Notes: generated from the letters alone by a model not told the origin. 64,000 bases of DNA from Promethearchaeota archaeon (GCA_030599585.1 JAUVNS010000001.1:32001-96000); one strand, 5' to 3'; shown: positions 17,697-30,283, counted from the first letter of the stretch. Numbers and translations: made by a program.

Positions 17697-19013
17697 ATGG
17701 CAGTAAAAGTAGCTTTTATGCAGGCCAGTGATTGCTGGGGCTGTCATCAATCCTTATTGAACGCACATTTAGGATTGTTGCCTGTTCTCCCAGCGCTCGA
17801 TATAGTTTATTGGCCAGCAGTTGTAGATTTCAAACACGATTCACTAAAAGCGCGACCAGACGGTGACATACTTGTAGGCTTCTTAGAAGGAAGTATGAGA
17901 ACAAATGAGGATGTAGAAAACGCCAAACTCATGAGGGCTAAATGCCAACTCATAGTTGGGTTTGGTAGTTGTGCATGCTACGGAAATGTTCACGGATTAG
18001 CTAATGAGTGGGATATTGAAGATGTTATTAAACGGAAGTACGAACAAACCGAATCAATTACCGATGAATCTCCGCACGAACCAAAAGAACACATGCCAGG
18101 ATTTACGGGAAAAATCGTTCCATTGGACGAAGTCATAAGCGTTGATATATTTATGGCGGGATGTCCTCCGAAACCTGAAGCTATTATAAGCGCAGTTCAA
18201 TTTTTGCTTGGTCAAAAGCCACAGCCAATGGCAGATTTGTCTTTCTGTAACGATTGCTCTTTAAATAATGAGAATTGTTTACTAGAAAAATACGAATTAT
18301 GTTTTGGTCCTATTACTAGTATCGGATGTACCTTAAAATGTACTGATAATGGAGAACCATGCGTTGGCTGTCTCGGTCCAGCAAAAACAGTTTCGGCAAG
18401 AGCAGAAAAATTGAAAACAATGACACAGAATATGCATCAACTTAGTTCTGGTGACAAGAAGAATTTACACGAGTTCTTAACGTTGTTTTTAAATGTTCCT
18501 CTCATGTCTGGATTTGATTTAGCAGGAGACATTTTAAAACAAGTGAGAAAAACTGGTGAAGCTCAAACCGCTTTAGCTAACGTACCTGCTGATACAGGCG
18601 ATATATACGCTAACCTTATGAAATTTCTGAAGAACAATCGAGAATTCATAAAGATTTCAAATGTGTGCGACCAATGCGACCTTGAAATTGGAAGCAAATC
18701 TCAAATGACGAAAGTTAAACGGGATTACGAAGGACTTCCAAACTCAACCGATTGTTTAATAGAACAAGGTTACCTATGTGCAGGTCCGATAACAAGAGCT
18801 GGATGTGGAGGTTTGTGTATGAGAGTTAACACACCTTGTTCCGGCTGCTTTGGTCAAACCGCTTGGAATGTTGATCAAGCTGAACGCTTTGCTGATGTAG
18901 TAACGAAGGGCTTTAATGTGGCTTTATCTAAAGAAGAATTGCTTGCGCAAGTTAAGGATAAGCTTGGCTTCATGGAAAAATTCACATTGGCTACAAACAA
19001 AAATTATAGGTAG
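17697..19013 (+). CDS. vhuG: Group 3c [NiFe(Se)] hydrogenase small subunit with duplicated C-terminal Fe-S module
   Basis: SDCWGC, FGSCACYG, GCPP; two copies of CxxC..CL..CxGPxTxxGC..C..PCxGCxG. Confidence 0.88.
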   Translation: MAVKVAFMQASDCWGCHQSLLNAHLGLLPVLPALDIVYWPAVVDFKHDSLKARPDGDILVGFLEGSMRTNEDVENAKLMRAKCQLIVGFGSCACYGNVHGLANEWDIEDVIKRKYEQTESITDESPHEPKEHMPGFTGKIVPLDEVISVDIFMAGCPPKPEAIISAVQFLLGQKPQPMADLSFCNDCSLNNENCLLEKYELCFGPITSIGCTLKCTDNGEPCVGCLGPAKTVSARAEKLKTMTQNMHQLSSGDKKNLHEFLTLFLNVPLMSGFDLAGDILKQVRKTGEAQTALANVPADTGDIYANLMKFLKNNREFIKISNVCDQCDLEIGSKSQMTKVKRDYEGLPNSTDCLIEQGYLCAGPITRAGCGGLCMRVNTPCSGCFGQTAWNVDQAERFADVVTKGFNVALSKEELLAQVKDKLGFMEKFTLATNKNYR

Positions 19014-19024
19014 GTGTAAAAAAA

Positions 19025-20329
19025 ATGGTAAAAGAAATAACAGTAGAACCAGTCACTCGATTAGAGGGACATGGTGGATTAAGAGTTGTCATAGGAGATG
19101 ACGGTAAGGTAAAAGACGCTCAGTTTAACATAACTTCGACACGATTTTTCGAGAAATTTCTTGAAGGACGTTATTGCGAACATATACCGAGAATCACGCC
19201 TAGAATTTGCGGAATTTGTCCAATCCCACATCATTTAACTCCCACTAAAGCAATAGAAGATGCTTGGGGCGTTAAAATACCAGAACCCGCTCGAAAATTA
19301 CGAATTTTGCTACAAAATGCGAAACAATATTCTTCACATATGCTTCATTTTTATGCATTAGCAGCACCTGATTTCTTACTGGGGCCTTTTGCGGATCCAG
19401 CTTTGAGGAATGTTGTTCATGTGATAAACAAGATGCCCGATGTTGGGGCAATGGCATTGAAGATGATGGATTTTGGTCAAAAACTATGCGCTGAAATCGG
19501 TGGAAAGTCAGTTCACCCCGTTTCTGCAATTGTAGGCGGGATGAAAAAACCAATGGACGAAGCCGCAAGGGATAAGTTCCTAAAAATGGTCCCTGAACAA
19601 GTTGATTTCATGTTGAAGACAGTTGATATTGCTCTAAAAGTTGTAACCGATTATTGGGATGTCGTTGCTAATGTAGGTGTTGTACCAACTTACTATCTTG
19701 GTATGACTAAGAACGGAGTACACGATATTTACGAAGGTGATCTTAGGATAGTTACACCTGAAGGCAAGAAGATTGATTACGACGTTCATAATTATTTGGA
19801 CGTACTTGGCGAACATATTCCAGAACATTCGTATGCAACACATATGTATTATAAACCAGCAGGATATCCCGATGGAATTTATCGAGCCAATACTCTGGCA
19901 ATGACGAATTGTGCTGATAAAATGGCAACACCTTTAGCTGACAAGGCTTTAAAGGAAATGAAAGCCAAAATTGGCGATGTGTCGCATCATACCTTTGCTT
20001 ATCATTGGGCACGAATTATTGAAGCTGTGGAGTCAATTGAATTAATCGCAAAATATCTTGAAGACCCTGATATAGTGAATCCTGATTGTAAAACTTTGGA
20101 TGTGCAACCAAGAGAAGGAAATGGTGTAGCGATAACTGAGGCCCCTAGAGGCTTATTGTTGTATCATATCTGGTCTGATGCTGAAGGAATATGTAAGAAA
20201 GCAAATCTCTTAGTAGCAACTAATCATAACATTGCTGGAATTGAAAAGACGCTAATGCATGTTGCCAAACAAGTGTTTGAAGATAAGGCACTAGAAGGAT
20301 TAAAATTACCAGACCCTTGGATTAATTAA
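19025..20329 (+). CDS. vhuA: Group 3c hydrogenase large subunit lacking the C-terminal L2 motif (split type)
   Basis: PVTRLEGHG, L1 RICGICPIPH, EAPRG, VATNHN; no DPCxxCxxH before the stop. Confidence 0.92.
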   Translation: MVKEITVEPVTRLEGHGGLRVVIGDDGKVKDAQFNITSTRFFEKFLEGRYCEHIPRITPRICGICPIPHHLTPTKAIEDAWGVKIPEPARKLRILLQNAKQYSSHMLHFYALAAPDFLLGPFADPALRNVVHVINKMPDVGAMALKMMDFGQKLCAEIGGKSVHPVSAIVGGMKKPMDEAARDKFLKMVPEQVDFMLKTVDIALKVVTDYWDVVANVGVVPTYYLGMTKNGVHDIYEGDLRIVTPEGKKIDYDVHNYLDVLGEHIPEHSYATHMYYKPAGYPDGIYRANTLAMTNCADKMATPLADKALKEMKAKIGDVSHHTFAYHWARIIEAVESIELIAKYLEDPDIVNPDCKTLDVQPREGNGVAITEAPRGLLLYHIWSDAEGICKKANLLVATNHNIAGIEKTLMHVAKQVFEDKALEGLKLPDPWIN

Positions 20330-20353
20330 AAAAGAGGAAACCGTGATTAAAAA

Positions 20354-20506
20354 ATGAGCGAAGAAATACCGGAAGGAGTAGTAAACCTTTTAGAAATGAT
20401 TGTGCGTTGCTTCGATTGTTGACTATCGTGTGCAGCCCACATAACCGTTGTTAAAGAAAACGGGGAAGAGATTTACTCTCGCAAGTTGAACGTTGGCTTA
20501 GGATGA
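20354..20506 (+). CDS. vhuU: Selenoprotein VhuU (separately encoded L2 peptide, Sec at TGA 20420-20422)
   Basis: Not in ORF track. MSEEIPEGVVNLLEMIVRCFDC[TGA]LSCAAHITVVKENGEEIYSRKLNVGLG*; the TGA sits at the first Ni-ligand position of L2. Confidence 0.93.
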
Positions 20507-20563
20507 ATATCCAATAAAAACAATAGATTGGATACAACGCCCCCTGCCCGGGGTAAAAGCCAA
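20491..20563 (+). promoter_or_regulatory. Candidate SECIS-like structured 3' element of vhuU
   Basis: ATGA, then 8-bp stem TATCCAAT(20508-15)/ATTGGATA(20527-34) with A-rich loop; outer TTGGCTT/AAGCCAA pairing; GC hairpin at about 20539-20554. Lacks the canonical 3' GA. Confidence 0.45.
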
Positions 20564-20604
20564 TAAATATATAAAATAAATGGAAATGAAAAATTGGAAA
20601 AGAC

Positions 20605-21120
20605 GTGAAAAAAATGACAGTAGATTTTGAATTTCGAAAACAAGTTATGGATTATCATATCGGGTCTGATTTAATTAAGTATTGTTATCAATGTAGTCGT
20701 TGTGCAGATAATTGTCCAGTTAGTGCTGTGACGACAGACTTCTATGGGACTACAGGATACAATCCAAGAAGTAATATTCTTAATGCTTTGTTAGGATACA
20801 AGGATGCGATATTTTCTGCTGATGCCTTGACTATTTGGGGTTGTACAGTATGCGATACATGCGACGAGGTTTGTCCACAGAACATTGAATTAACTGAGAT
20901 TTTTACGCTTTTAAAGAATCAAAGTGTAGCAAATGGAGATGCGCCTGATTTTATTTATTCGCAAGCAAAAGCAATTTTTGACAATGCGAAGGCTATTCCA
21001 TCTCAGCCTGCTATAGTCCGTAGACGAGAACAATTTGGTCTACCCGCTGTTGCGGAGCCAGATGTTAGTGAATTCCAAACTTTATTAAAAAACATGGGAG
21101 TAGATAAAAAACTTAAATAA
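20605..21120 (+). CDS. hdrC: Heterodisulfide reductase subunit C
   Basis: CYQCSRCADNCP, IWGCTVCDTCDEVCPQ; upstream of hdrB. Confidence 0.9.
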   Translation: MKKMTVDFEFRKQVMDYHIGSDLIKYCYQCSRCADNCPVSAVTTDFYGTTGYNPRSNILNALLGYKDAIFSADALTIWGCTVCDTCDEVCPQNIELTEIFTLLKNQSVANGDAPDFIYSQAKAIFDNAKAIPSQPAIVRRREQFGLPAVAEPDVSEFQTLLKNMGVDKKLK

Positions 21121-21135
21121 GAGGTATAAAAAAAG

Positions 21136-22008
21136 ATGACAGAATATAAAATGTTTGAAGGTTGTGTACTCGGAAACCGTATACCAGCTATAGAAGCCGC
21201 ATGTAGAAAAGTTTTTGATAAAGTGGGTATTGAAACATCGCAAGCGCCCTTTTCTTGTTGCCCTGATCCTACGGGCATGAAATCGTTTGATAATGACGCT
21301 TGGTTAGCAATTGGCGCGAGAAACTTATGTTTAGCTGAAGCTGAAGGAAAAGACATAATTTCTTTATGTAATGGTTGTACTAATACGCTTCGAGGCGTTC
21401 AGCATCAATTAAAACACGATTCGTGGAAAATGGACAAGATAAATGGTGAACTCGCTAAAATCGGGAAGGAATACAAAGGATCCATTGATATTAAACACTT
21501 TGTAGATGTGCTAAGCGACAATTTAGACAAGGTCAAAGGAGCAATTACTAAGCCACTTGAGGGTCTAAAAGTTGCTGTCCATCCAGGATGTCATTATATG
21601 CGCCCTGGTGAGTGGATGGAATCAGACGATCCCATGAGGCCAACAACGTTAAAGAAGCTCGTAGAAGCAAGTGGAGCAACCGTAGTTGATTATGGAGAGG
21701 AAATTTTATGTTGCGGGAATGCCGTAACTAACGCTTACCCTGAACACGGATTTGCTAACTTAAAGATTAAGATGGATGCTATCAAAAAATCTGGCGCAGA
21801 TGTGATTGCAGTAAATTGTCCTGCGTGTTATCAACAATTCGATGAAAAGCAGAGAGATTTAGGCAAGAAATACGAGACTGAATACGGGATTCCAGCGATG
21901 TATATCACAGAGCTTTACGCTTTGGCGATGGGCTTCACTCCAGAAGATATCGGCTTGAAATTTCACAGAACTCGATTAAAATCCACGTTAGAAAAACTTG
22001 GACTATAA
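21136..22008 (+). CDS. hdrB: Heterodisulfide reductase subunit B
   Basis: GC, SCCP, ARNLCLAE, CNGC, HPGCHYMRP, CCG, CPACYQQFD. Confidence 0.93.
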   Translation: MTEYKMFEGCVLGNRIPAIEAACRKVFDKVGIETSQAPFSCCPDPTGMKSFDNDAWLAIGARNLCLAEAEGKDIISLCNGCTNTLRGVQHQLKHDSWKMDKINGELAKIGKEYKGSIDIKHFVDVLSDNLDKVKGAITKPLEGLKVAVHPGCHYMRPGEWMESDDPMRPTTLKKLVEASGATVVDYGEEILCCGNAVTNAYPEHGFANLKIKMDAIKKSGADVIAVNCPACYQQFDEKQRDLGKKYETEYGIPAMYITELYALAMGFTPEDIGLKFHRTRLKSTLEKLGL

Positions 22009-22025
22009 ATAACCAAATTTATAAC

Positions 22026-22047
22026 TTTATTTTTTTATTTTTTTATT
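22026..22047 (+). terminator. Oligo-T terminator after the vhu-hdr operon
   Basis: T-rich tract shortly after the hdrB stop. Confidence 0.5.
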
Positions 22048-22268
22048 CTTACTTATTATTAAGAGTTATTTTCAATTTCTCCGAATGAAATTATATACCA
22101 GATTCTCCTATTAATTCAAAATAAACCTTTAATTGGGTAATAGATTATAATCTAAAGCAGTCATAACAATTAAAAATCTCAAAAAATAATTGTAGCTTGA
22201 GAAAAATAATGATTATGTACTCAATAAGTTCGATTCCCTAAATACTACACATGTAATTATCACTTGAT

Positions 22269-23402
22269 TTAATGAATTTTTATAACTTTACCGAAATTTT
22301 TATCTTTTATTCTCTTCTCCTTAAGTAAAGCCTTATTTTTCGAGATAACTTGATACATATCAATGAAACTTTTTGGAGGTATCGATTCTTCTTTTTTTTT
22401 GACTAGTTTTCGTGCATTTTCCGGACATCTTGGAATACAAACGCCACAACCTATACAATAGCCTAAATTAACTTCAGAAACTCCATTTTCATTAATTTTA
22501 GTCGCATCCATGTGGCAACTCGGGACGCAATCGCCGCAACCTTTACAAATTTCTTCGTTAATGGATAGGTAATAATTAGAAGTGATATATTGTGCGGGAT
22601 TTTCATATTTTTTAAGATTTTCTAGAACCATACATGAGCAACCACAACAGCAACAAATCATAGATGGTTTCTGAGAGTTGGTTGGGCAAAGAACCATTCC
22701 CCTTTCCTGTGCCATTCGTAGGACCTCAAGAGCTTCTTCTTTTGTAACTTCACGACCTTGATTCAAATTAACTCGTGAGCCTTTACCAAATGTTAAGCAA
22801 GTTTCTTTTGGGTGGTCACAACCCTTTCCCTGTATTTCTTTTGATTGTCTACATATGCAAGGGCTTAAAAAAAAAGTTGTGTGAACATTATCTAAAAGAC
22901 TTGTAATCTCATCATAATTGGAGATATTATATTCTATAGGGATACTTTTTTCAATAGGGATTGTTCTTAGTTGAATAATACCATTTTCCAACATTTTAGA
23001 CATAAATCCTTCATCACAATACTGATCAAAATCTTCTGCAAATTCTTTTGTAAGTTTATCAATTTGAAAATCAATAAATCCAATAGCTAAAGGGACGATA
23101 CCAAAATAATTTATTCCCTCTTTAGATTTAATCCAATTTATTGAACCTTTTTTTGCCAGTGTGAGAAGCTTATTAGAAAACTGTTCTAGGGTCCAACCAT
23201 TCTTTTTAAAAGGTCTAAATAGTTTTTTTGCCTCCTGAGGAATTACTTTTAACCTTAATGCAATTTCTGCTTCTTGAGGGGTAAAAAGGTGCTTTAAAAT
23301 CCTAATTTCAACCCCCGATTCTGTCTCAGGATAGTCTATTGGAAGTGTATCAAGATATTGTTGAAGTTTTCTATAGACATCGCCGTTGTTTTTAGAAATC
23401 AT
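22269..23402 (-). CDS. Multi-Cys 4Fe-4S dicluster protein
   Basis: ILKHLFTPQEAEIA N-domain, CICR, CCCCGCSC, two ferredoxin CxxCxxCxxxC motifs. Confidence 0.85.
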   Translation of the reverse strand: MISKNNGDVYRKLQQYLDTLPIDYPETESGVEIRILKHLFTPQEAEIALRLKVIPQEAKKLFRPFKKNGWTLEQFSNKLLTLAKKGSINWIKSKEGINYFGIVPLAIGFIDFQIDKLTKEFAEDFDQYCDEGFMSKMLENGIIQLRTIPIEKSIPIEYNISNYDEITSLLDNVHTTFFLSPCICRQSKEIQGKGCDHPKETCLTFGKGSRVNLNQGREVTKEEALEVLRMAQERGMVLCPTNSQKPSMICCCCGCSCMVLENLKKYENPAQYITSNYYLSINEEICKGCGDCVPSCHMDATKINENGVSEVNLGYCIGCGVCIPRCPENARKLVKKKEESIPPKSFIDMYQVISKNKALLKEKRIKDKNFGKVIKIH

Positions 23403-23501
23403 AAAATGATAATTAATTTTAATATTTAAAAAGTTTATAGTTGCTTAGAGGAAGAGAACACTTCAATAGGCAAAAATTGAATAATACGAACAACATTCTT
23501 T

Positions 23502-23580
23502 TCAAAAAATAATTAGGTTAAGAATTATAATATCAATTATTAAAATAACAGATACTTTTTGAAAATTAACCTGTTGTTAA
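23502..23580. repeat. Direct repeat copy 1 flanking the SRPBCC gene
   Basis: TCAAAAAATAATTAGGTTAAGAATTATAATATCAATTATTAA; 40/42 identical to the copy at 24118, weaker similarity beyond. Confidence 0.85.
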
Positions 23581-23585
23581 GATGT

Positions 23586-24017
23586 TTATGGGCTTACCAT
23601 GAGTTGCTTCTTATCAAAGTCCTCTGCATTTCCTCCTTCTTCTAGAAAATCTACAAAATTCTTTAAAGCTTTTAGGGTTAACTCACCAACCTTCTCGTAA
23701 CCCTTTGCCAATTTTTTGTTATCCAAATCGACCCATAAAGTTGTTTCAACAATATCTCCTTTAGGTTCTAAAATATAACCAAGAGAATTCATGGTGCTAT
23801 TCTTCATATGCCAAGTTACGTATTCATTTTCAACCTGTTCCCAATCTACAATAAAAATATCTCCTATAGAAGATTTTAGATGAAATTCTTTTCCTTCCTC
23901 TTTTTCTGTTATTTCATCAACACCAAGATTCCATTTTGTAATAATTTCTGCATCAATAAGAATATCATAAATTCTTTTTGGACTTGATTTAATTTCAATT
24001 TTTTTCTCCATTCTCAT
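23586..24017 (-). CDS. SRPBCC/START-fold protein
   Basis: IEIKSSPKRIYDIL..W N-terminus and LKALKNFVD C-terminal helix. Confidence 0.75.
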   Translation of the reverse strand: MRMEKKIEIKSSPKRIYDILIDAEIITKWNLGVDEITEKEEGKEFHLKSSIGDIFIVDWEQVENEYVTWHMKNSTMNSLGYILEPKGDIVETTLWVDLDNKKLAKGYEKVGELTLKALKNFVDFLEEGGNAEDFDKKQLMVSP

Positions 24018-24117
24018 TTAAAAATTACCTCTATTTGATTTTAGGTAGAAATAATGTCAACATAATTTTTATACATTTGTGTCGCTATTTTGAAAATAGA
24101 TTGAATATGTTATACAA

Positions 24118-24205
24118 TCAAAAAATAATTAGGGTAAGAATTATAGTATCAATTATTAATTTTTAAAATAGCAGATTTTTTATTTGAAAATCGAATTGCT
24201 GCTAA
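24118..24205. repeat. Direct repeat copy 2
   Basis: TCAAAAAATAATTAGGGTAAGAATTATAGTATCAATTATTAA. Confidence 0.85.
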
Positions 24206-24242
24206 TAAGTATAAGAGAATCGTTTTTTAGTGTGATTTACGA

Positions 24243-25226
24243 ATGCAAAAATTTATTTCAGACTACGATGATGATGATACAACTGTTTCTTCGAAGTATA
24301 ATGGCCCGAAATTTGATGCCCACGTTCATTTAGGGAGTATGAAAGGTATTCATAATTTAATTAAGTACAGAGAAGAGTTTAACATAAAAAAATCGGTCGG
24401 TATTGTCTGGGACGATAAGACTGATGTATATGAGAAAAGATTTCCAGATAAGTTTGTGCTGGCAAAGTATTTTAGAAGTAAGCATATGTTTACTGCAAAC
24501 CCGGATTCTAAATTGTTAACGGAAGAGATAGAAAAAATTTACCAACAAGGATTTCCAATTGTTAAATTCTGGTTTGGACCGAGAGTGAGAGACTACGTAA
24601 AAGAATACTTCAAATTAGAACCAAAAACAATTCACTTATCTGATCCCATTTTTAAATCCATATTCGCTAAGATGGAAGAATTGGGGCTCTATTTATTAAT
24701 TCACGTTAGCGATCCTGATCAATGGTATGAGAAAGTGTATCAACCGGTTAGCCGATATGGTACAAAGAAAGAGCATTTAGATGATTTTGAGGAGGTTTTG
24801 TCAAGTTTTCCAAAATTAAAAGTGCTCCAAGCACATTTTGGGAGTCAACCAGAAGATCTAGACCATTTATCGAGGTGGTTTGAATCATATCCAAATTACT
24901 ATGTAGATATGTCTTCAGCAAGATGGATGGCACGAGAGCTTGGGAGGGATCCAGAAAAAGCACGGGAATTTTTCATTAAATATTCAGACAGGATTCTTTT
25001 TGGGTCCGATCTTGTACAGGATCGAAACAAACCCGTTTCCACCTATTATCGAACTCGTTATTTTACGTTTCAAGCAATTTTAGAGACTTCGGTCAGAGAT
25101 TTACCTTTACCTTTTCCAGATCCTGAAAATAATAATGAAACAAAGATTAATGGGTTGGATCTTCCCTTAGATATCTTAAAGAAAATTTATTGGGAAAACG
25201 CAAATAAGTTCCTCAAACTCACTTGA
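24243..25226 (+). CDS. Amidohydrolase_2 family metallohydrolase
   Basis: DAHVH, IHVSDP, AHFG, DRILFGSD, KIYWENA. Confidence 0.88.
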   Translation: MQKFISDYDDDDTTVSSKYNGPKFDAHVHLGSMKGIHNLIKYREEFNIKKSVGIVWDDKTDVYEKRFPDKFVLAKYFRSKHMFTANPDSKLLTEEIEKIYQQGFPIVKFWFGPRVRDYVKEYFKLEPKTIHLSDPIFKSIFAKMEELGLYLLIHVSDPDQWYEKVYQPVSRYGTKKEHLDDFEEVLSSFPKLKVLQAHFGSQPEDLDHLSRWFESYPNYYVDMSSARWMARELGRDPEKAREFFIKYSDRILFGSDLVQDRNKPVSTYYRTRYFTFQAILETSVRDLPLPFPDPENNNETKINGLDLPLDILKKIYWENANKFLKLT

Positions 25227-25236
25227 ATCGTTAAAC

Positions 25237-26946
25237 TTAGAGAAAAATTTCCATTCCAGGGGGAAGCCACGGTTTGTAAATTCGCATGTGATCTTTAAAG
25301 AAATTTGAAAAACCATTTTTTAAACATAAATCTAACCAATGAAATACTACTTCTTGCCCATGTTTTTCTTTAGAGATTTTTCCGAACATATTACTCAAAT
25401 AACTTCCGACAATATTTTTATGTTCTGAAGGTATATCTGTTGCTTGGATATTTACTAAGATATTTTCAAGTTGCTCCATGTAAGATTTAAAATTTGTTAA
25501 GAGTTCTAATATTTTAGCTCTATCTTGAGGATAATCCTTGGGTTTAGTATTTAATTTACTAAACTTGCCAAGATTTTTCATAAGACCTTTAATGTTGTCT
25601 AAAAAGTGTGGTATATTTAATTTGACTAAATCTTGTTCTAATTTCCTAGTTATAAAAGTATTCATTGTTATTTTATTGTAGAAATAAATAACTGGTAAAG
25701 AAATTGTTTTGTCAAACTGTTTAATTAACGGGATTCCCATTGTATAATATCTGGCTTCACCAGTACCTGCAATATGAATTGCTGGTTTGATGGTTTTTGA
25801 AACTAAATATTGGCGTGATTCAACTCTTGGAGTAAAAAAAGCAACGTGTTCAGAAAGATCAGGGCTATCCTTTTCGAGGCTAAAATCTATTAAATTCCCG
25901 CAATTATCGCACTCACATTTAACATGGATCATTGAGGTATAGTCTTGCCCGGTTAATTCCAACCTTCTGCAGTTACACTGTTCGTTATCGCACTCATAAA
26001 AAAAGGGGACAAAATCACGTCTAATCTCTCTTAAGGGAGGGCGAATATTATGCTCCATAAATTGATTTTTCAAATTGATATAAGTATCAACATACCTACT
26101 TTGATTCTCTAATAGAGTTTCATAAAATGGCGTTAATAGCTTCTTAAATTCTAAATCTGAAGCAGAAATGAAAAGATATCCTTGGTCAAAGATAACATTG
26201 GAAATTGTCCCAATTATGTTGATGAACCAATCTGTATAGTTCTCTGCGTTATTGTGGGCTATTTTGATTAATCGAAACGCTTCTTCTAGCCGTTCTTCTA
26301 ATAGCTTTTTATGCCAATTATCTTCTACACTGGAATTAATAGAATTACTGTATTTTTTTCTAATTTCTTGAAATTGCTCCATGAGATAAGATACAGATGG
26401 TAGCGGAAGATTTCTAATTCTCATTCCAAGAAATTCCTTTTCTATTTCAGGTTTTATTGAAATTGAAAATCCATTAGGGGAATCGCTTTGGGAAAATTTA
26501 GTTTTTATTAATTCTGAATGAATCTTATCATAATCAGCAACGTAAAAAATTGGAATTACGTTAGGATCAAGGTTGGTGAAAGCTGCTCCGCATGCAATTT
26601 TGTTAAAAAGAAACCTTTCACCACCTAAAAATTTTGGTTGATGTGAAACTTCTAAGTTAAGACTATTATTATCGGTAAGAAAATTTTCCAAATGTCTTTT
26701 GGCTTTGCCAGTTAGCAGATTATATTTCTTATTTGTGTTTTCAAAAATTTTTCCCAGTGCTACTTTTATTTTTTCATTATTTGTATCTTTTTCCGTTTCT
26801 CTATTTACTTTCTTTGCAAGTAAAATGGCATCGCTCATAGTTTGGGGTATAAGACCTTTCATACCTTCAGAAATCCAAGATTTTTGTCCTTCTAAGGCAT
26901 ATAACAAGTAATATTTTAATGGGTCTTCGAATTTATCGTTCGACAT
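25237..26946 (-). CDS. BshC-like (bacillithiol cysteine-adding) protein
   Basis: SHQPKFLGG, PIFYVADYD, PFFYEC, AGTGEARYY resemble BshC motifs; BshC-like length; directly after bshB1. Confidence 0.65.
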   Translation of the reverse strand: MSNDKFEDPLKYYLLYALEGQKSWISEGMKGLIPQTMSDAILLAKKVNRETEKDTNNEKIKVALGKIFENTNKKYNLLTGKAKRHLENFLTDNNSLNLEVSHQPKFLGGERFLFNKIACGAAFTNLDPNVIPIFYVADYDKIHSELIKTKFSQSDSPNGFSISIKPEIEKEFLGMRIRNLPLPSVSYLMEQFQEIRKKYSNSINSSVEDNWHKKLLEERLEEAFRLIKIAHNNAENYTDWFINIIGTISNVIFDQGYLFISASDLEFKKLLTPFYETLLENQSRYVDTYINLKNQFMEHNIRPPLREIRRDFVPFFYECDNEQCNCRRLELTGQDYTSMIHVKCECDNCGNLIDFSLEKDSPDLSEHVAFFTPRVESRQYLVSKTIKPAIHIAGTGEARYYTMGIPLIKQFDKTISLPVIYFYNKITMNTFITRKLEQDLVKLNIPHFLDNIKGLMKNLGKFSKLNTKPKDYPQDRAKILELLTNFKSYMEQLENILVNIQATDIPSEHKNIVGSYLSNMFGKISKEKHGQEVVFHWLDLCLKNGFSNFFKDHMRIYKPWLPPGMEIFL

Positions 26947-26957
26947 ATTTATTTTAC

Positions 26958-27653
26958 CTACAATTTCAAGTTTTCAAAATCCAGCATTAAATGTTCAGGA
27001 TTAATAAATCCTTCAGCGAATTTTACCCCTATTTGATATCCCAAATATCCGGCACGTTCTTTTATATAATCAAAAATCCTTAAATGCTTTTTATTATCAA
27101 CAAACTGTGATTTATAGGCTTTAAGCGCATTTATTTTTTCTTCGATTGAATCAGAAATATCGATTAAAAAGTCCAATTTTCGATTCTTATCTTTTAAATG
27201 TGAATGATCAAAATAAAAAACATATTTTGGGTAGTATTCTCGATATTCGGATTCAGTTTTTGTTAGTTTTGCTTGAAATTTAGCGGCATTAACAATCCGG
27301 TGACAAGCTATGTGATCTGGGTGCCAATCATTGGATGGATGGGTAATGAGAATATTGGGTTTATATTTTCTAATCACTTCAGAAACTTTTTTTCTATTCT
27401 CTATTGTATTTTCAATATATCTATTTGTCATATCGAGAGTAATTCTTAGATCTAGATTTAAAATTTCAGAAGCTGCTTTAGCCTCAGCCATCCTTTTTTC
27501 TACAGTACCGAATGGAGTAGGTTCTCCATTTGATAAATCCAGCACTCCAATTTTTTTACCCTTTTTCTTGTAATGGGCAATTGTTCCTCCACATCCGATT
27601 TCTGCGTCATCAGGATGGGCTCCTATTACTAAAATATCTAATTCAAGCTTCAT
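26958..27653 (-). CDS. bshB1: Bacillithiol-type GlcNAc deacetylase (PIG-L/LmbE family)
   Basis: AHPDDAEIGCGGTIA, DLSNGE, HPDH, DISD..K..A..AYKSQF, GVKFAEGF. Confidence 0.85.
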   Translation of the reverse strand: MKLELDILVIGAHPDDAEIGCGGTIAHYKKKGKKIGVLDLSNGEPTPFGTVEKRMAEAKAASEILNLDLRITLDMTNRYIENTIENRKKVSEVIRKYKPNILITHPSNDWHPDHIACHRIVNAAKFQAKLTKTESEYREYYPKYVFYFDHSHLKDKNRKLDFLIDISDSIEEKINALKAYKSQFVDNKKHLRIFDYIKERAGYLGYQIGVKFAEGFINPEHLMLDFENLKL

Positions 27654-27662
27654 TTTATTCTA

Positions 27663-28568
27663 CTAAGTTTCCAGTTCTTTAATTTGTGTAAATATTGATT
27701 CTTGTATTTTTTTAAAATTATATTTATTAATATCATCCACACCATTGAAATAATCTGAAAAAATTGACTTAAAAACATTAATATTTGTTTTTAAGGGAGT
27801 ATTCACAAGTGATTCAATTAACTGAATATATCTTTCAATTCTTTCTTCTCCTTTTTTAAACAAAAAGCTATCTTTTGCATTTTTTAAAATTGCATCTCTA
27901 TCTTTATATATTACTGGAACTCCTTTTTCAACAATTTTGTACCCTTTTTTCATTGATTTAATCCAGATTTCGATGGGTATTTCATATCCGTTTATTTCTA
28001 AATCCAAATCATTAATTGCATTACATTCATATGCCTTTAAACCACAAAATGCGTCTGTAATAGAAAATCCGAGTGTATTGAGAATTCCCGTGATGATCGC
28101 ATTCACAAGAAATCTATCTTTCCAAGGTTTTTGCCATGAATGTTCTAAATTTTTATATCTTGACCCCGAAATAATTTGATCTGTTGGTTTTTCAAGAATT
28201 AGATCAATAAACTTGTATAAATAGTTTGGTTCATGTTGGCCATCCATATCGAACGATATTATCCAAGAAAATTTCATTTCTTTAGCGTATTTAAAACCTC
28301 TTATGAGTGTATACCCATAACCTTTATTTTCTTTAAAATTAACAATAGAAAAAAGAGAATCATGATTGTTTTTATCCAAAATTTGCATAGTTCCATCTGT
28401 AGAACCATCATTAATGATAAGGATTTTCAAATTAAATTCGCTGCTTCTTTGCGAATTTTGTTTTACACAACGGAGATGCTCTAGTATATGTTCAATGTTT
28501 TCTTCTTCATTAAAACACGGGATTAGTAAGAGAATATCAATTATTTTTTCAGAAATATCGATAACCAA
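27663..28568 (-). CDS. Glycosyltransferase family 2 (DPM1-like)
   Basis: IPCFNEE, INDGSTD, NKGYG, DMDGQH, SGSR, TDAFCGLKAY. Confidence 0.9.
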   Translation of the reverse strand: MVIDISEKIIDILLLIPCFNEEENIEHILEHLRCVKQNSQRSSEFNLKILIINDGSTDGTMQILDKNNHDSLFSIVNFKENKGYGYTLIRGFKYAKEMKFSWIISFDMDGQHEPNYLYKFIDLILEKPTDQIISGSRYKNLEHSWQKPWKDRFLVNAIITGILNTLGFSITDAFCGLKAYECNAINDLDLEINGYEIPIEIWIKSMKKGYKIVEKGVPVIYKDRDAILKNAKDSFLFKKGEERIERYIQLIESLVNTPLKTNINVFKSIFSDYFNGVDDINKYNFKKIQESIFTQIKELET

Positions 28569-28642
28569 TCATTTTTTATAAATCTTCATTGAAATAATGC
28601 ATCAAAATTTTTAGAATTGTTGATTTTGAGTTATAAGAAATC

Positions 28643-29173
28643 ATGAAAGAATTCAAAATCAACGAATTCATTACCAAAAAATTTATTTGCTTAACATCCC
28701 CTTTAGAAATCATGCCAGAAAGTATCAAATCTTTAGAGTTTTTATATGATTACGTTAAAAGTTTGTTTGAAAAGCGAAAAGATAATCATTTTGAAGAATC
28801 CATGAAAGAATCGTTATTTAAAGGAGAGAAAACCGCTCTCGATTTATTTGTACATTCTGTTAGCACGCTTCATTTTGCAATGAAAAAAACGACTAATCCT
28901 AATGCAGATATGAAAGATATAGCAATAAAGTTAGATCCCAAATCCACCACACCTTTGCATGAACAATTGTTAGATTTATTTAATAAAGCAAATGAAGCCT
29001 ATACAGAAGAAAGAATAAAATATAATGAAGAAGACCTTAAAAATATGTTTAAATCCCCTTTTGGGAGAGAGATGACGTACGAAGATTGGTTTGGGTTCAT
29101 TATCCATCACACAATCGGGCATATTTATCAGTCTCTTAGATTGCAGGCAATTTATCTAAGACATAAAATTTAA
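28643..29173 (+). CDS. DinB/YfiT-like protein
   Basis: LFVHS and HHTIGHIYQ His triad; SPFG-x-MT motif. Confidence 0.7.
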   Translation: MKEFKINEFITKKFICLTSPLEIMPESIKSLEFLYDYVKSLFEKRKDNHFEESMKESLFKGEKTALDLFVHSVSTLHFAMKKTTNPNADMKDIAIKLDPKSTTPLHEQLLDLFNKANEAYTEERIKYNEEDLKNMFKSPFGREMTYEDWFGFIIHHTIGHIYQSLRLQAIYLRHKI

Positions 29174-29301
29174 ACGAGCCGTTATCTATCTTAAGAGTAC
29201 AAAATGTGAAACCTACAAAAAAGAAAGAAAGCTCGGTTACCGAAAAAGTTAAATGATAATGCTAATCTTCACAATTTCAATATTTTAAGAGTTTAATAAT
29301 A

Positions 29302-30012
29302 TTAGATCAGAAATCCTTTAAGGACTACCAGAGCCCCAATATCGATAATAATCAACGCTAAAATCTCTATCGCAATTAACGAGAAAATTCCCCCTATTAC
29401 ATTGATAAAAATCCCTAAAATAAATAATATTACTCCTATAGAAAACCATTTTAATCGATTTCTAGTTTCGCCTTCTATTTTTCTGGTATCGTCCTCTATT
29501 TTTTTCGTAATTCCAATATATCTATAAGCAGCAAATGCAGTTAAAAATATCCGAACGGCATTCACAAAAATTAACAATCCGAGAGGAGTATGAGTATTTA
29601 CTATACGCAGAGCATAATCACCCATATCTAAATACGGTGGAAATATAAAATATCCCATACTCATGACAAAGAATAAAATTAGCATGGTTCCAAGATACTT
29701 CATGCCCATGGCAATCTTAGTATGTTTTTCAAGCACGAACAGGGTCATCACGAGAGAAATTGAGTTAAAATTAAAAAAGATATGGGCTGTTATCATGAGT
29801 GGAATAATAATATCCGGATTGTCTAAAATTAAATGATAAATCGCATAAATGAAAAATCCTAAGGATGAGGATATAAAATATAAGGCAAACCATCTGTTCA
29901 ACAAATCTCTTTTGTTTAAAAGAAGAACTCGTAATCCAATAATTAGTGCGATAGCTGCTGTAATTATTGTCGTTATTATTTTTATTATATTATATGTATC
30001 CAAGTTATTCAA
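29302..30012 (-). CDS. Stand-alone 7-TM protein (HisKA_7TM-like sensor region)
   Basis: Seven hydrophobic helices; LNRWFALYF motif; no cytoplasmic kinase domain. Confidence 0.55.
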   Translation of the reverse strand: MNNLDTYNIIKIITTIITAAIALIIGLRVLLLNKRDLLNRWFALYFISSSLGFFIYAIYHLILDNPDIIIPLMITAHIFFNFNSISLVMTLFVLEKHTKIAMGMKYLGTMLILFFVMSMGYFIFPPYLDMGDYALRIVNTHTPLGLLIFVNAVRIFLTAFAAYRYIGITKKIEDDTRKIEGETRNRLKWFSIGVILFILGIFINVIGGIFSLIAIEILALIIIDIGALVVLKGFLI

Positions 30013-30283
30013 ACCTTAGAATTAAATTATTCTGTCTATAGTTATTTGGCGCGTATAATATATATAGATATAACTACCCCTTTGAATATCCGCAATTATT
30101 GATATTATTTTTTCTTACTATTTGCGTTATATTTCTAGTGTCTGTCAAGGTTTATATCGCAAACATTAAAAATAGTGGTGGCGATTAATTATGTGCATAT
30201 ATTTCAATGTAGTGAAGAAGTATATATTAGGTATAAGATATATATAATTCATCTGAATGAGACATATTAGGAGTAGAGATTAA

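Follow-up and report, generated by a model that had tools for sequence, protein, structure and literature searches.

A 64,000-nucleotide (nt) stretch of DNA from a Promethearchaeota archaeon (GCA_030599585.1 JAUVNS010000001.1:32001-96000), hereafter the window, with positions counted from its first letter, carries a compact block of genes resembling those for bacillithiol synthesis, in which a glycosyltransferase of family GT2 takes the place of the usual first enzyme, BshA. The block comprises genes for the GT2 protein, a PIG-L deacetylase, a protein of the BshC fold and an Amidohydro_2 hydrolase, accompanied by a gene of the DinB superfamily. It is interpreted here as an optional four-gene cassette of one Lokiarchaeial order, together with the co-inherited DinB gene, encoding a rewired bacillithiol-type pathway whose product would be a soluble thiol distinct from bacillithiol, an interpretation to which about an even chance is given. 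In more general terms, the cassette probably makes an undescribed cysteine-aminosugar compound.

Homologs of BshA and BshC in Asgard archaea were noted in 2020 by Rawat and Maupin-Furlow (PMC7278568), and a 2025 survey of RefSeq found the complete bacillithiol pathway in no archaeon (bioRxiv 10.1101/2025.07.06.663066). No description of the GT2 swap was found in the literature searched. The presence/absence segment of about 8 kb that carries the block, the co-inheritance of DinB and the phylum-wide profile of Amidohydro_2 are new. To our knowledge, no measurement of a low-molecular-weight thiol exists for any Asgard archaeon.

The GT2 gene in the position of BshA

Three genes on the minus strand form a tight operon, encoding a GT2 glycosyltransferase of the DPM1/GtrB/ArnC type (27663..28568, 301 amino acids, PF00535, start codon TTG), a PIG-L/LmbE deacetylase of the BshB1 type (26958..27653, 231 amino acids, PF02585 and TIGR04001) and an Asgard-type BshC-fold protein (25237..26946, 569 amino acids, PF10079, with a match to PDB entry 4WBD), with gaps of 9 nt between the first two and 11 nt between the last two. 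On the plus strand, the gene for the Amidohydro_2 metal-dependent hydrolase (24243..25226, 327 amino acids, PF04909), the conserved fourth member of the block, converges on the BshC-like gene with 10 nt between their ends, and the gene for a DinB-superfamily protein (28643..29173, DinB_2), a candidate thiol-dependent S-transferase, diverges from the GT2 gene with 74 nt between their starts. The open reading frames (ORFs) of the operon, its two gaps and both flanking genes lie exactly where an earlier reading of the window, made from sequence only, had placed them.

The arrangement of four genes is not a product of chance. When named genome records were scanned with the GT2 alignment, 28 Promethearchaeia loci were recovered, among them those of Lokiarchaeum ossiferum Loki-B35 and Promethearchaeum syntrophicum MK-D1. 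The order GT2, PIG-L, BshC-like, Amidohydro_2 is kept in 25 of them, with the other three stopping at or near a contig end. The same scan gave a single non-archaeal match, of 28% identity and without the cassette.

The phylum was surveyed across 301 genomes with four queries, namely a profile of the BshC-like protein, the BshA model (TIGR03999, cut-off 273.7 bits), the Amidohydro_2 protein and the GT2 protein, with counts given as genomes matched over genomes searched. A control search recovers BshA in Bacillus subtilis and Deinococcus radiodurans. By marker genes, the window's genome is 100% complete; no BshA in it reaches the cut-off, and the best score, 130.7 bits, comes from genes in large glycosyltransferase clusters. 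The window's family (f1) and family f2 together supply 75 sampled genomes of the order, and BshA above cut-off is found in none (0/75); in three single-contig genomes of the order in which the GT2 gene adjoins the BshC-like gene, the best score is 104 bits.

In sister families, the same type of BshC is accompanied by true BshA. BshC-like genes and over-cut-off BshA genes occur, respectively, in 27/28 and 27/28 genomes of f7, 71/76 and 69/76 of f9, 17/19 and 16/19 of f14, and 11/11 and 11/11 of f16, and both are present in f20, f26 and f27; the corresponding counts are 5/68 and 0/68 in f1, and 4/7 and 0/7 in f2. At the sampled BshC-like loci of f7, f9, f14, f16, f20 and f27, a GT4 gene lies adjacent or a few kb away, and five GT4 proteins scanned from BshC-like loci reach 325-400 bits on TIGR03999. 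Within f1 and f2, a GT2 ortholog (42-88% identity) is present in exactly the nine BshC-positive genomes, and it is present in no other family. The proposal that GT2 stands in place of BshA, with no canonical bshA found elsewhere in the genome, therefore holds by comparison.

Phylogenetic analysis of 74 BshC-like proteins places the GT2-linked ones in one clade, with a Shimodaira-Hasegawa-like approximate likelihood ratio test (SH-aLRT) support of 100 and a long stem of 0.83. This clade is nested in the Asgard-type clade (SH-aLRT 98), whose other branches are BshA-linked, so that the simplest history is a BshA-type ancestor followed by a glycosyltransferase swap in one Lokiarchaeial order. The long stem fits a change of substrate at the swap, and the cassette BshC-like and PIG-L proteins share about 26-30% identity with those of the BshA-linked Asgard clusters.

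Other families were considered alongside. Weak GT2 matches (about 30% identity) in f24 and f30, which have no BshA, do not adjoin PIG-L, BshC-like or Amidohydro_2 genes, and a third cluster type could not be defined. Family f29 has true BshA in 10/11 genomes and an Amidohydro_2 ortholog in 9/11, with the Asgard BshC profile matching 0/11, and its BshC may be a more distant one. No counterpart of the cassette was confirmed in bacteria: the look-alikes of GT2 in the Atlas, as those of Amidohydro_2, pointed to Planctomycetota clusters, and the contexts of four distant BshC-like representatives (P0311, P0258, P0260 and P0273) are short or uninformative, with a PIG-L neighbor only in P0258.

Comparison with genomes of the same genus places the block on a presence/absence segment of about 8 kb (22046..30091). 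In three complete same-genus genomes without the block (G071 C8, G065 C20 and G083 C12), the DNA matching 19000-22045 and that matching from about 30092 onward lie only about 0.2-1 kb apart, and the carrier G264 is colinear with the window over 23583-28665. Within the genus, then, the cassette is optional. An origin of the contig in the bin's contamination (8.9%) was considered and rejected: both flanks of the segment match same-genus genomes at 70-85% DNA identity, so the contig belongs to this genus.

Several further loci were recorded. The segment also contains a gene for a 377-residue 4Fe-4S dicluster protein (22269-23402), which is missing at this spot in G264 and has a 73% identical copy elsewhere in G065, and which looks like a separate insertion. 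In the single-contig genome G305:C1 (L066, L102), the BshC-like gene beside GT2 and PIG-L (2318406-2319401) spans residues 5-338 only and has no adjacent Amidohydro_2 gene, and a piece matching BshC-like residues 450-570 (436670-437032) lies 1.9 Mb away, so the cassette may be decaying in this genome. Three metagenome-assembled genomes (L090, L100 and L111) labelled Hodarchaeota, Thorarchaeota and Bathyarchaeota carry GT2 proteins 59-81% identical to that of the window, the first two with the whole cassette, and these labels are probably wrong.

Enzymes of the cassette

The GT2 protein scores 78.8 bits on PF00535, and its orthologs begin at the same place as its TTG start. Its best NCBIfam matches are PpgS (75.9 bits, cut-off 370) and AglJ (59.5, cut-off 325), and ArnC scores 43.8 (cut-off 529), all far below cut-off, with the PpgS match covering residues 11-223, and a profile search of the PDB gives dolichyl-phosphate-mannose (Dol-P-Man) synthase 5MLZ at 71 bits over residues 7-214. 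The whole catalytic domain is matched by PpgS, AglJ, ArnC and the Pyrococcus Dol-P-Man synthase, with other GT2 families matching the nucleotide-binding half only. By sequence, the protein groups with the polyprenyl-phosphate glycosyltransferases. Motifs D54-G-S-x-D58, D107-x-D109-G-Q-H and T171-D172-x-F-C-G-x-K-A are invariant in the ortholog alignment. The closest paralog in the same genome is only 31-33% identical and the ortholog is confined to block carriers, marking this GT2 as a dedicated cassette member and not a housekeeping enzyme.

The protein is soluble, with a GT-A domain followed by a C-terminal domain of three helices, and its sequence has no transmembrane segment. Structural comparison with VIA gives Z 21.4 for the inverting Dol-P-Man synthase (24-25% identity), Z 20.4 for the inverting ArnC, Z 20.2 for the retaining mannosylglycerate synthase (12% identity, 256 residues aligned including the C-terminal helices) and Z 19.2 for glucosyl-3-phosphoglycerate synthase (GpgS). 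Inverting and retaining enzymes are matched about equally, so the model does not settle between the two mechanisms, and the earlier argument that an inverting GT2 would yield a different anomer is plausible conjecture. Candidate acceptors are a small acid, a phosphate ester and a polyprenyl phosphate. In the Kyte-Doolittle (KD) hydropathy profile, the top 19-residue window (KD 1.84) is beta strand 1, and helix 153-171 (KD 1.59) is nearly as hydrophobic as a transmembrane segment. GT2 orthologs of f2 and related loci (L040:8339-9334, L042:5960-7201, L043:6204-7112 and L057:8336-9358) carry Cys-rich C-terminal tails (CxC ... CxC, e.g. C-R-C ... C-K-L-N); the window GT2 has no such tail, which in f2 and its relatives could be a metal site or a lipid anchor.

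The PIG-L protein scores 97.7 bits on PF02585 and 205.8 bits on the BshB1 equivalog model TIGR04001, above its cut-off of 182.5, with 48.6 bits on MshB. The PIG-L proteins of BshA-linked Asgard clusters reach only 82-94 bits on the BshB1 model, compared with 206 here. Its best PDB sequence matches are B. cereus BshB (2IXD, 124 bits) and B. subtilis BshB1 (6P2T, 120 bits). Residues H13, D15, D16, R54, H111 and H114 align with the metal and catalytic residues of 2IXD (roles from PMC4101496), H13, D16 and H114 corresponding to the metal ligands His12, Asp15 and His113, and R54 to Arg53. Arg53 and Arg109 of the B. cereus enzyme contact the substrate (PMC4101496). The latter is replaced by Trp110 in the window, by Trp or Phe in all cassette orthologs and by Tyr in BshA-linked Asgard PIG-L proteins. 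The pocket thus departs from that of the Bacillus enzyme, yet this position does not separate the two Asgard cluster types.

Homology of the third operon gene to BshC, on which the sequence-only reading depended, was established by several routes. The BshC-like protein passes PF10079 (33.2 bits, threshold 27) and falls far below the equivalog cut-off of TIGR03998 (33.2 bits, cut-off 265.8). A phmmer search of the PDB with the single sequence finds no match, and 4WBD, the only solved BshC structure, is reached only by profile and fold searches. A profile of 21 homologs matches 4WBD in three colinear pieces (E 1.1e-5), which include the motifs HQPKFLGGERFLxNK and GTGExRYY aligned with BshC motifs. 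The AlphaFold2 model built from the homolog alignment has a predicted local distance difference test score (pLDDT) of 92.4; Foldseek ranks 4WBD first (E 7.5e-16), and VIA superposes model residues 6-569 on residues 11-537 of the 4WBD chain with Z 35.0 and a root-mean-square deviation of 2.9 A over 453 residues. Class I lysyl-tRNA synthetase 1IRX comes second (Z 23.5), ahead of other class I synthetases (Z 10-12). The protein has a Rossmann core resembling class I aminoacyl-tRNA synthetases (aaRS) and a coiled-coil C-terminal part.

The BshC-like protein contains the Cys pattern C319-x4-C324-x-C326 ... C344-x-C346-x2-C349 that had been noted as an extra, probably zinc-binding cluster. The pattern is present, with C319, C324, C346 and C349 invariant in the 21 homologs; C326 and C344 are not conserved, which reduces the six cysteines first listed to four. 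In the model, these four lie among four beta strands at 312-358, and the insert (25900..25992, minus strand) looks like a Cys4 zinc ribbon. It is present in sampled BshC-like proteins of f9, f14 and f24, and was not found in those sampled from f7, f16, f20, f26 and f27 or in two bacterial-type representatives. Most BshC proteins of the Asgard type have the ribbon, BshA-linked ones among them, which means that it is not a mark of the GT2 version.

Two related groups of BshC-like proteins were observed. A separate clade of BshC-superfamily proteins of about 515 residues (P0278, P0308, P0311, P0314 and others; loci L067 and L068) has a CxxC ... CxxC ribbon at the same position, and one member of this clade adjoins a TIR/AAA_16 gene. 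In family f24, which is without BshA, the BshC-like gene of the one genus examined (L049 7965-14257, L051 3303-9665) stands beside genes for an aminotransferase, an arginyl-tRNA synthetase and a stand-alone MprF-type flippase domain (LPG_synthase_TM), a neighborhood that hints at a tie between the aaRS-like BshC family and aminoacylated lipids.

The Amidohydro_2 protein scores 68.6 bits on PF04909 (threshold 26.4), with H27-x-H29, H154, H198 and D256, the metal ligands of a TIM-barrel hydrolase fold, invariant in 6 orthologs; no NCBIfam model matches at subfamily level, and no PDB sequence match was obtained. The convergent amidohydrolase described earlier is indeed convergent in the window, but the gene is not incidental to the block: it is adjacent in all complete cassette loci, runs in the same direction as the other genes in L. 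ossiferum and MK-D1, and also lies next to the BshA-type cluster at one locus, L041. Within f1 and f2, it occurs in exactly the same 9/75 sampled genomes as the BshC-like and GT2 genes. Unlinked orthologs (37-54% identity) occur in 22/28 genomes of f7, 69/76 of f9, 17/19 of f14, 16/21 of f24, 9/11 of f29 and 2/2 of f30; in the phylum sample, none was found in families lacking both BshA and this BshC type, nor in f16, f20 and f27. This phylum-wide co-occurrence with bsh-type genes, counted among relatives that are not independent, is a strong lead rather than a statistic. A complex prediction for the BshC-like and Amidohydro_2 proteins returned a score of 0.00, which counts neither for nor against binding.

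The DinB protein is borderline on DinB_2 (24.5 bits, cut-off 24.8), with 9/9 orthologs scanned matching at E<0.01 and no significant match among PDB sequences. H71, H155 and H156 do not vary among the orthologs, and the Loki set also retains H160. The first 23 codons (28643-28711) have no counterpart in seven orthologs, which begin at a Met matching M24 and have stops upstream in their frames, so the true start is probably M24 at 28712. A DinB ortholog is present in 6/8 block-bearing f1 genomes, often on another contig, and in 0/74 other f1 genomes searched. The DinB gene is co-inherited with the cassette in f1 even when unlinked, and the suggested link to the pathway is real in this sense. 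A DinB/MST gene also lies by the BshA-type cluster in L041.

The proposed pathway and competing explanations

In the proposed pathway, the DPM1-like GT2 would move N-acetylglucosamine (GlcNAc) from UDP-GlcNAc onto an acceptor X, the BshB1-type PIG-L would deacetylate the product, and the BshC-fold protein would add cysteine to the free amine, giving Cys-glucosaminyl-X (Cys-GlcN-X). The DinB protein would use the thiol of Cys-GlcN-X to conjugate electrophiles, and Amidohydro_2, acting as an amidase or lactonase, may supply or recycle part of the molecule or assist the ligase. X is envisaged as a small soluble anionic group, making the product a soluble low-molecular-weight thiol related, though not identical, to bacillithiol. 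The donor, acceptor, anomer, added amino acid and each reaction step are those suggested by protein family and gene order. A soluble product is preferred because DinB is co-inherited, none of the five cassette proteins (GT2, PIG-L, BshC-like, Amidohydro_2 and DinB) has a transmembrane segment, and the ORFs of the 8-kb segment include no identified flippase or GT-C gene.

Several observations weigh against a soluble thiol of this kind. In the window's genome, no matches were found for the bacilliredoxins (Brx) BrxA/B (DUF1094, PF06491) or for YtxJ (TIGR04019), and the best YpdA score (TIGR04018) is 82 bits, below the cut-off of 339.9, so that the genome lacks the proteins with which bacillithiol is usually redox-cycled. 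The acceptor half of GT2 is homologous specifically to the polyprenyl-phosphate glycosyltransferases PpgS, AglJ, ArnC and Dol-P-Man synthase, and its helix 153-171 is taken by us as the counterpart of their membrane-interface helix; human DPM1 and PpgS are members of that group also without transmembrane helices. Some members of the genus do without the cassette, which is therefore dispensable there. No reconstitution of the BshC reaction has been achieved, not even for Bacillus (PMC5790435), which makes the amino acid added in the third step an assumption.

A lipid-linked route is possible, though rather unlikely; in it, GT2 acts as a polyprenyl-phosphate GlcNAc synthase like AglK, CsbB, GacI or PpgS, PIG-L deacetylates the lipid-bound sugar and the BshC-fold protein aminoacylates it, giving a membrane-bound cysteinyl-glucosaminyl phosphopolyprenol that would provide the membrane with a thiol or act as the donor in surface decoration. 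Deacetylation on a lipid has a parallel in PIG-L itself, which acts on GlcNAc-phosphatidylinositol. The best relatives of GT2 in both sequence and structure (Dol-P-Man synthase, ArnC and GtrB), NCBIfam matches across the acceptor half that are all polyprenyl-phosphate enzymes, the hydrophobic helix, and the f2 tails as possible anchors are in line with such a route, and so is the gene order of one other Asgard genus, where an MprF-type flippase-domain gene lies close to the BshC-like gene. An archaeal GT2 enzyme making Dol-P-GlcNAc, AglK, is documented in a passage of PMC8993221 that cites Larkin 2013. Nevertheless, the cassette proteins are free of transmembrane segments, no flippase or GT-C transferase gene was identified among the ORFs of the segment, the deacetylase is of the BshB1 type, whose enzymes use a soluble substrate, and mannosylglycerate synthase, a soluble enzyme using a hydroxy acid, matched the GT2 model nearly as well as Dol-P-Man synthase, C-terminal helices included. 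The co-inherited DinB family, moreover, acts with soluble thiols (YfiT/BstA, MST).

Authentic bacillithiol made by non-orthologous displacement, with GT2 producing the alpha-GlcNAc-L-malate of BshA and the remaining pathway ordinary, is regarded as improbable. The deacetylase does exceed the BshB1 equivalog cut-off, retaining GT-A enzymes for small hydroxy acids (mannosylglycerate synthase and GpgS) match the model closely, and the DPM1-like AglK is reported to give an alpha-linked product. Identity of GT2 to the retaining enzymes is, however, 12-17%, compared with 24-25% to Dol-P-Man synthase, GT2 retains the T-D172 motif that characterizes the DPM1 group, searches of the genome found no Brx, YtxJ or YpdA, and the BshC-like and PIG-L proteins are distant from their BshA-linked Asgard counterparts, with the BshC clade on its long stem. 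The Trp or Phe in place of Arg109 is a weaker point, as BshA-linked Asgard PIG-L proteins are also without this Arg. A role outside thiol metabolism, in which the four enzymes modify a glycan or metabolite differently, for example by acylating the deacetylated aminosugar with another amino acid than cysteine or by salvaging GlcNAc-containing compounds, and the BshC fold serves only as an aaRS-like ligase of other specificity, is considered very improbable. The low TIGR03998 score and the missing redox partners would suit it, and known members of PF04909 are decarboxylases, hydratases and lactonases that fit no known bacillithiol step; BshC chemistry is also unsolved even in bacteria (PMC5790435). 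Against it, true BshA accompanies the Asgard-type BshC clade elsewhere, co-inheritance extends to a DinB gene, and the transferase, deacetylase, ligase logic of bacillithiol and mycothiol synthesis is kept.

A more specific chemical proposal is speculative and held to be unlikely. By analogy with the relatives of GT2, attack of a phosphate oxygen on UDP-GlcNAc in this enzyme might yield a cysteinyl-glucosamine 1-phosphate ester, carried in the membrane by a polyprenol or occurring as a soluble glycosyl phosphodiester, and Amidohydro_2 may in addition be the partner or extra step lacking in BshC reconstitutions. If such an ester is made, the closest relatives of eukaryotes in culture would have a protective thiol of a new chemical class.

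The two cultured strains examined, P. syntrophicum MK-D1 and L. ossiferum, each have the cassette, so its product can be sought directly, and the presence or absence of the cassette among species of one genus makes comparative physiology of carriers and non-carriers possible. Amidohydro_2, which travels with this BshC type, is a specific candidate for the factor still lacking from the unsolved BshC reaction. The occurrence of BshA-type clusters in most Asgard families and of the GT2 type in one order shows which parts of the pathway tolerate replacement.

Relation to known systems

Bacillithiol synthesis in Bacillus, Staphylococcus, Deinococcus and others (BshA of GT4, TIGR03999; BshB1, TIGR04001; BshC, TIGR03998 and 4WBD) follows the same order of steps, from glycosyltransferase through PIG-L to BshC-fold protein, and the cassette shares with it a deacetylase above the BshB1 cut-off, a full-length BshC fold and a linked DinB-family gene, as with BstA/YfiT. 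The first enzyme, however, is a DPM1-type GT2 of GT-A fold and not a retaining GT4 of GT-B fold, the BshC-like protein scores far below equivalog level and bears the Cys4 ribbon, Amidohydro_2 is added, Brx, YtxJ and YpdA are missing, and the system is known here from genes alone. The BshA-linked Asgard clusters of f7, f9, f14, f16, f20 and f27 have the same Asgard-type BshC clade, many with the Cys4 ribbon, and an Amidohydro_2 ortholog in the genomes of several families; they differ in having true BshA and low-scoring PIG-L proteins where the cassette has GT2 and a PIG-L above the BshB1 cut-off.

With the polyprenyl-phosphate glycosyltransferases (5MLZ, GtrB 5EKP, ArnC 9BHC, PpgS, AglJ and AglK), GT2 shares the DxD and T-D-x-x-x-G-x-K motifs, and the successions of ArnC and the deformylase ArnD, and of PIG-A and PIG-L, follow the same logic of N-acyl aminosugar transfer and then deacylation. 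GT2 differs in having a soluble three-helix domain in place of a transmembrane domain, and its cassette has no flippase or GT-C partner. Mycothiol synthesis (MshA, MshB and MshC) resembles the cassette in GlcNAc transfer, LmbE-type deacetylation, cysteine ligation by a class I aaRS-like enzyme and use of the product by DinB/MST proteins. In contrast, MshC is a paralog of cysteinyl-tRNA synthetase with Z 10.5 to the BshC-like model, compared with 35 for BshC, MshB scores only 48.6 bits and no MshA or MshD was seen.

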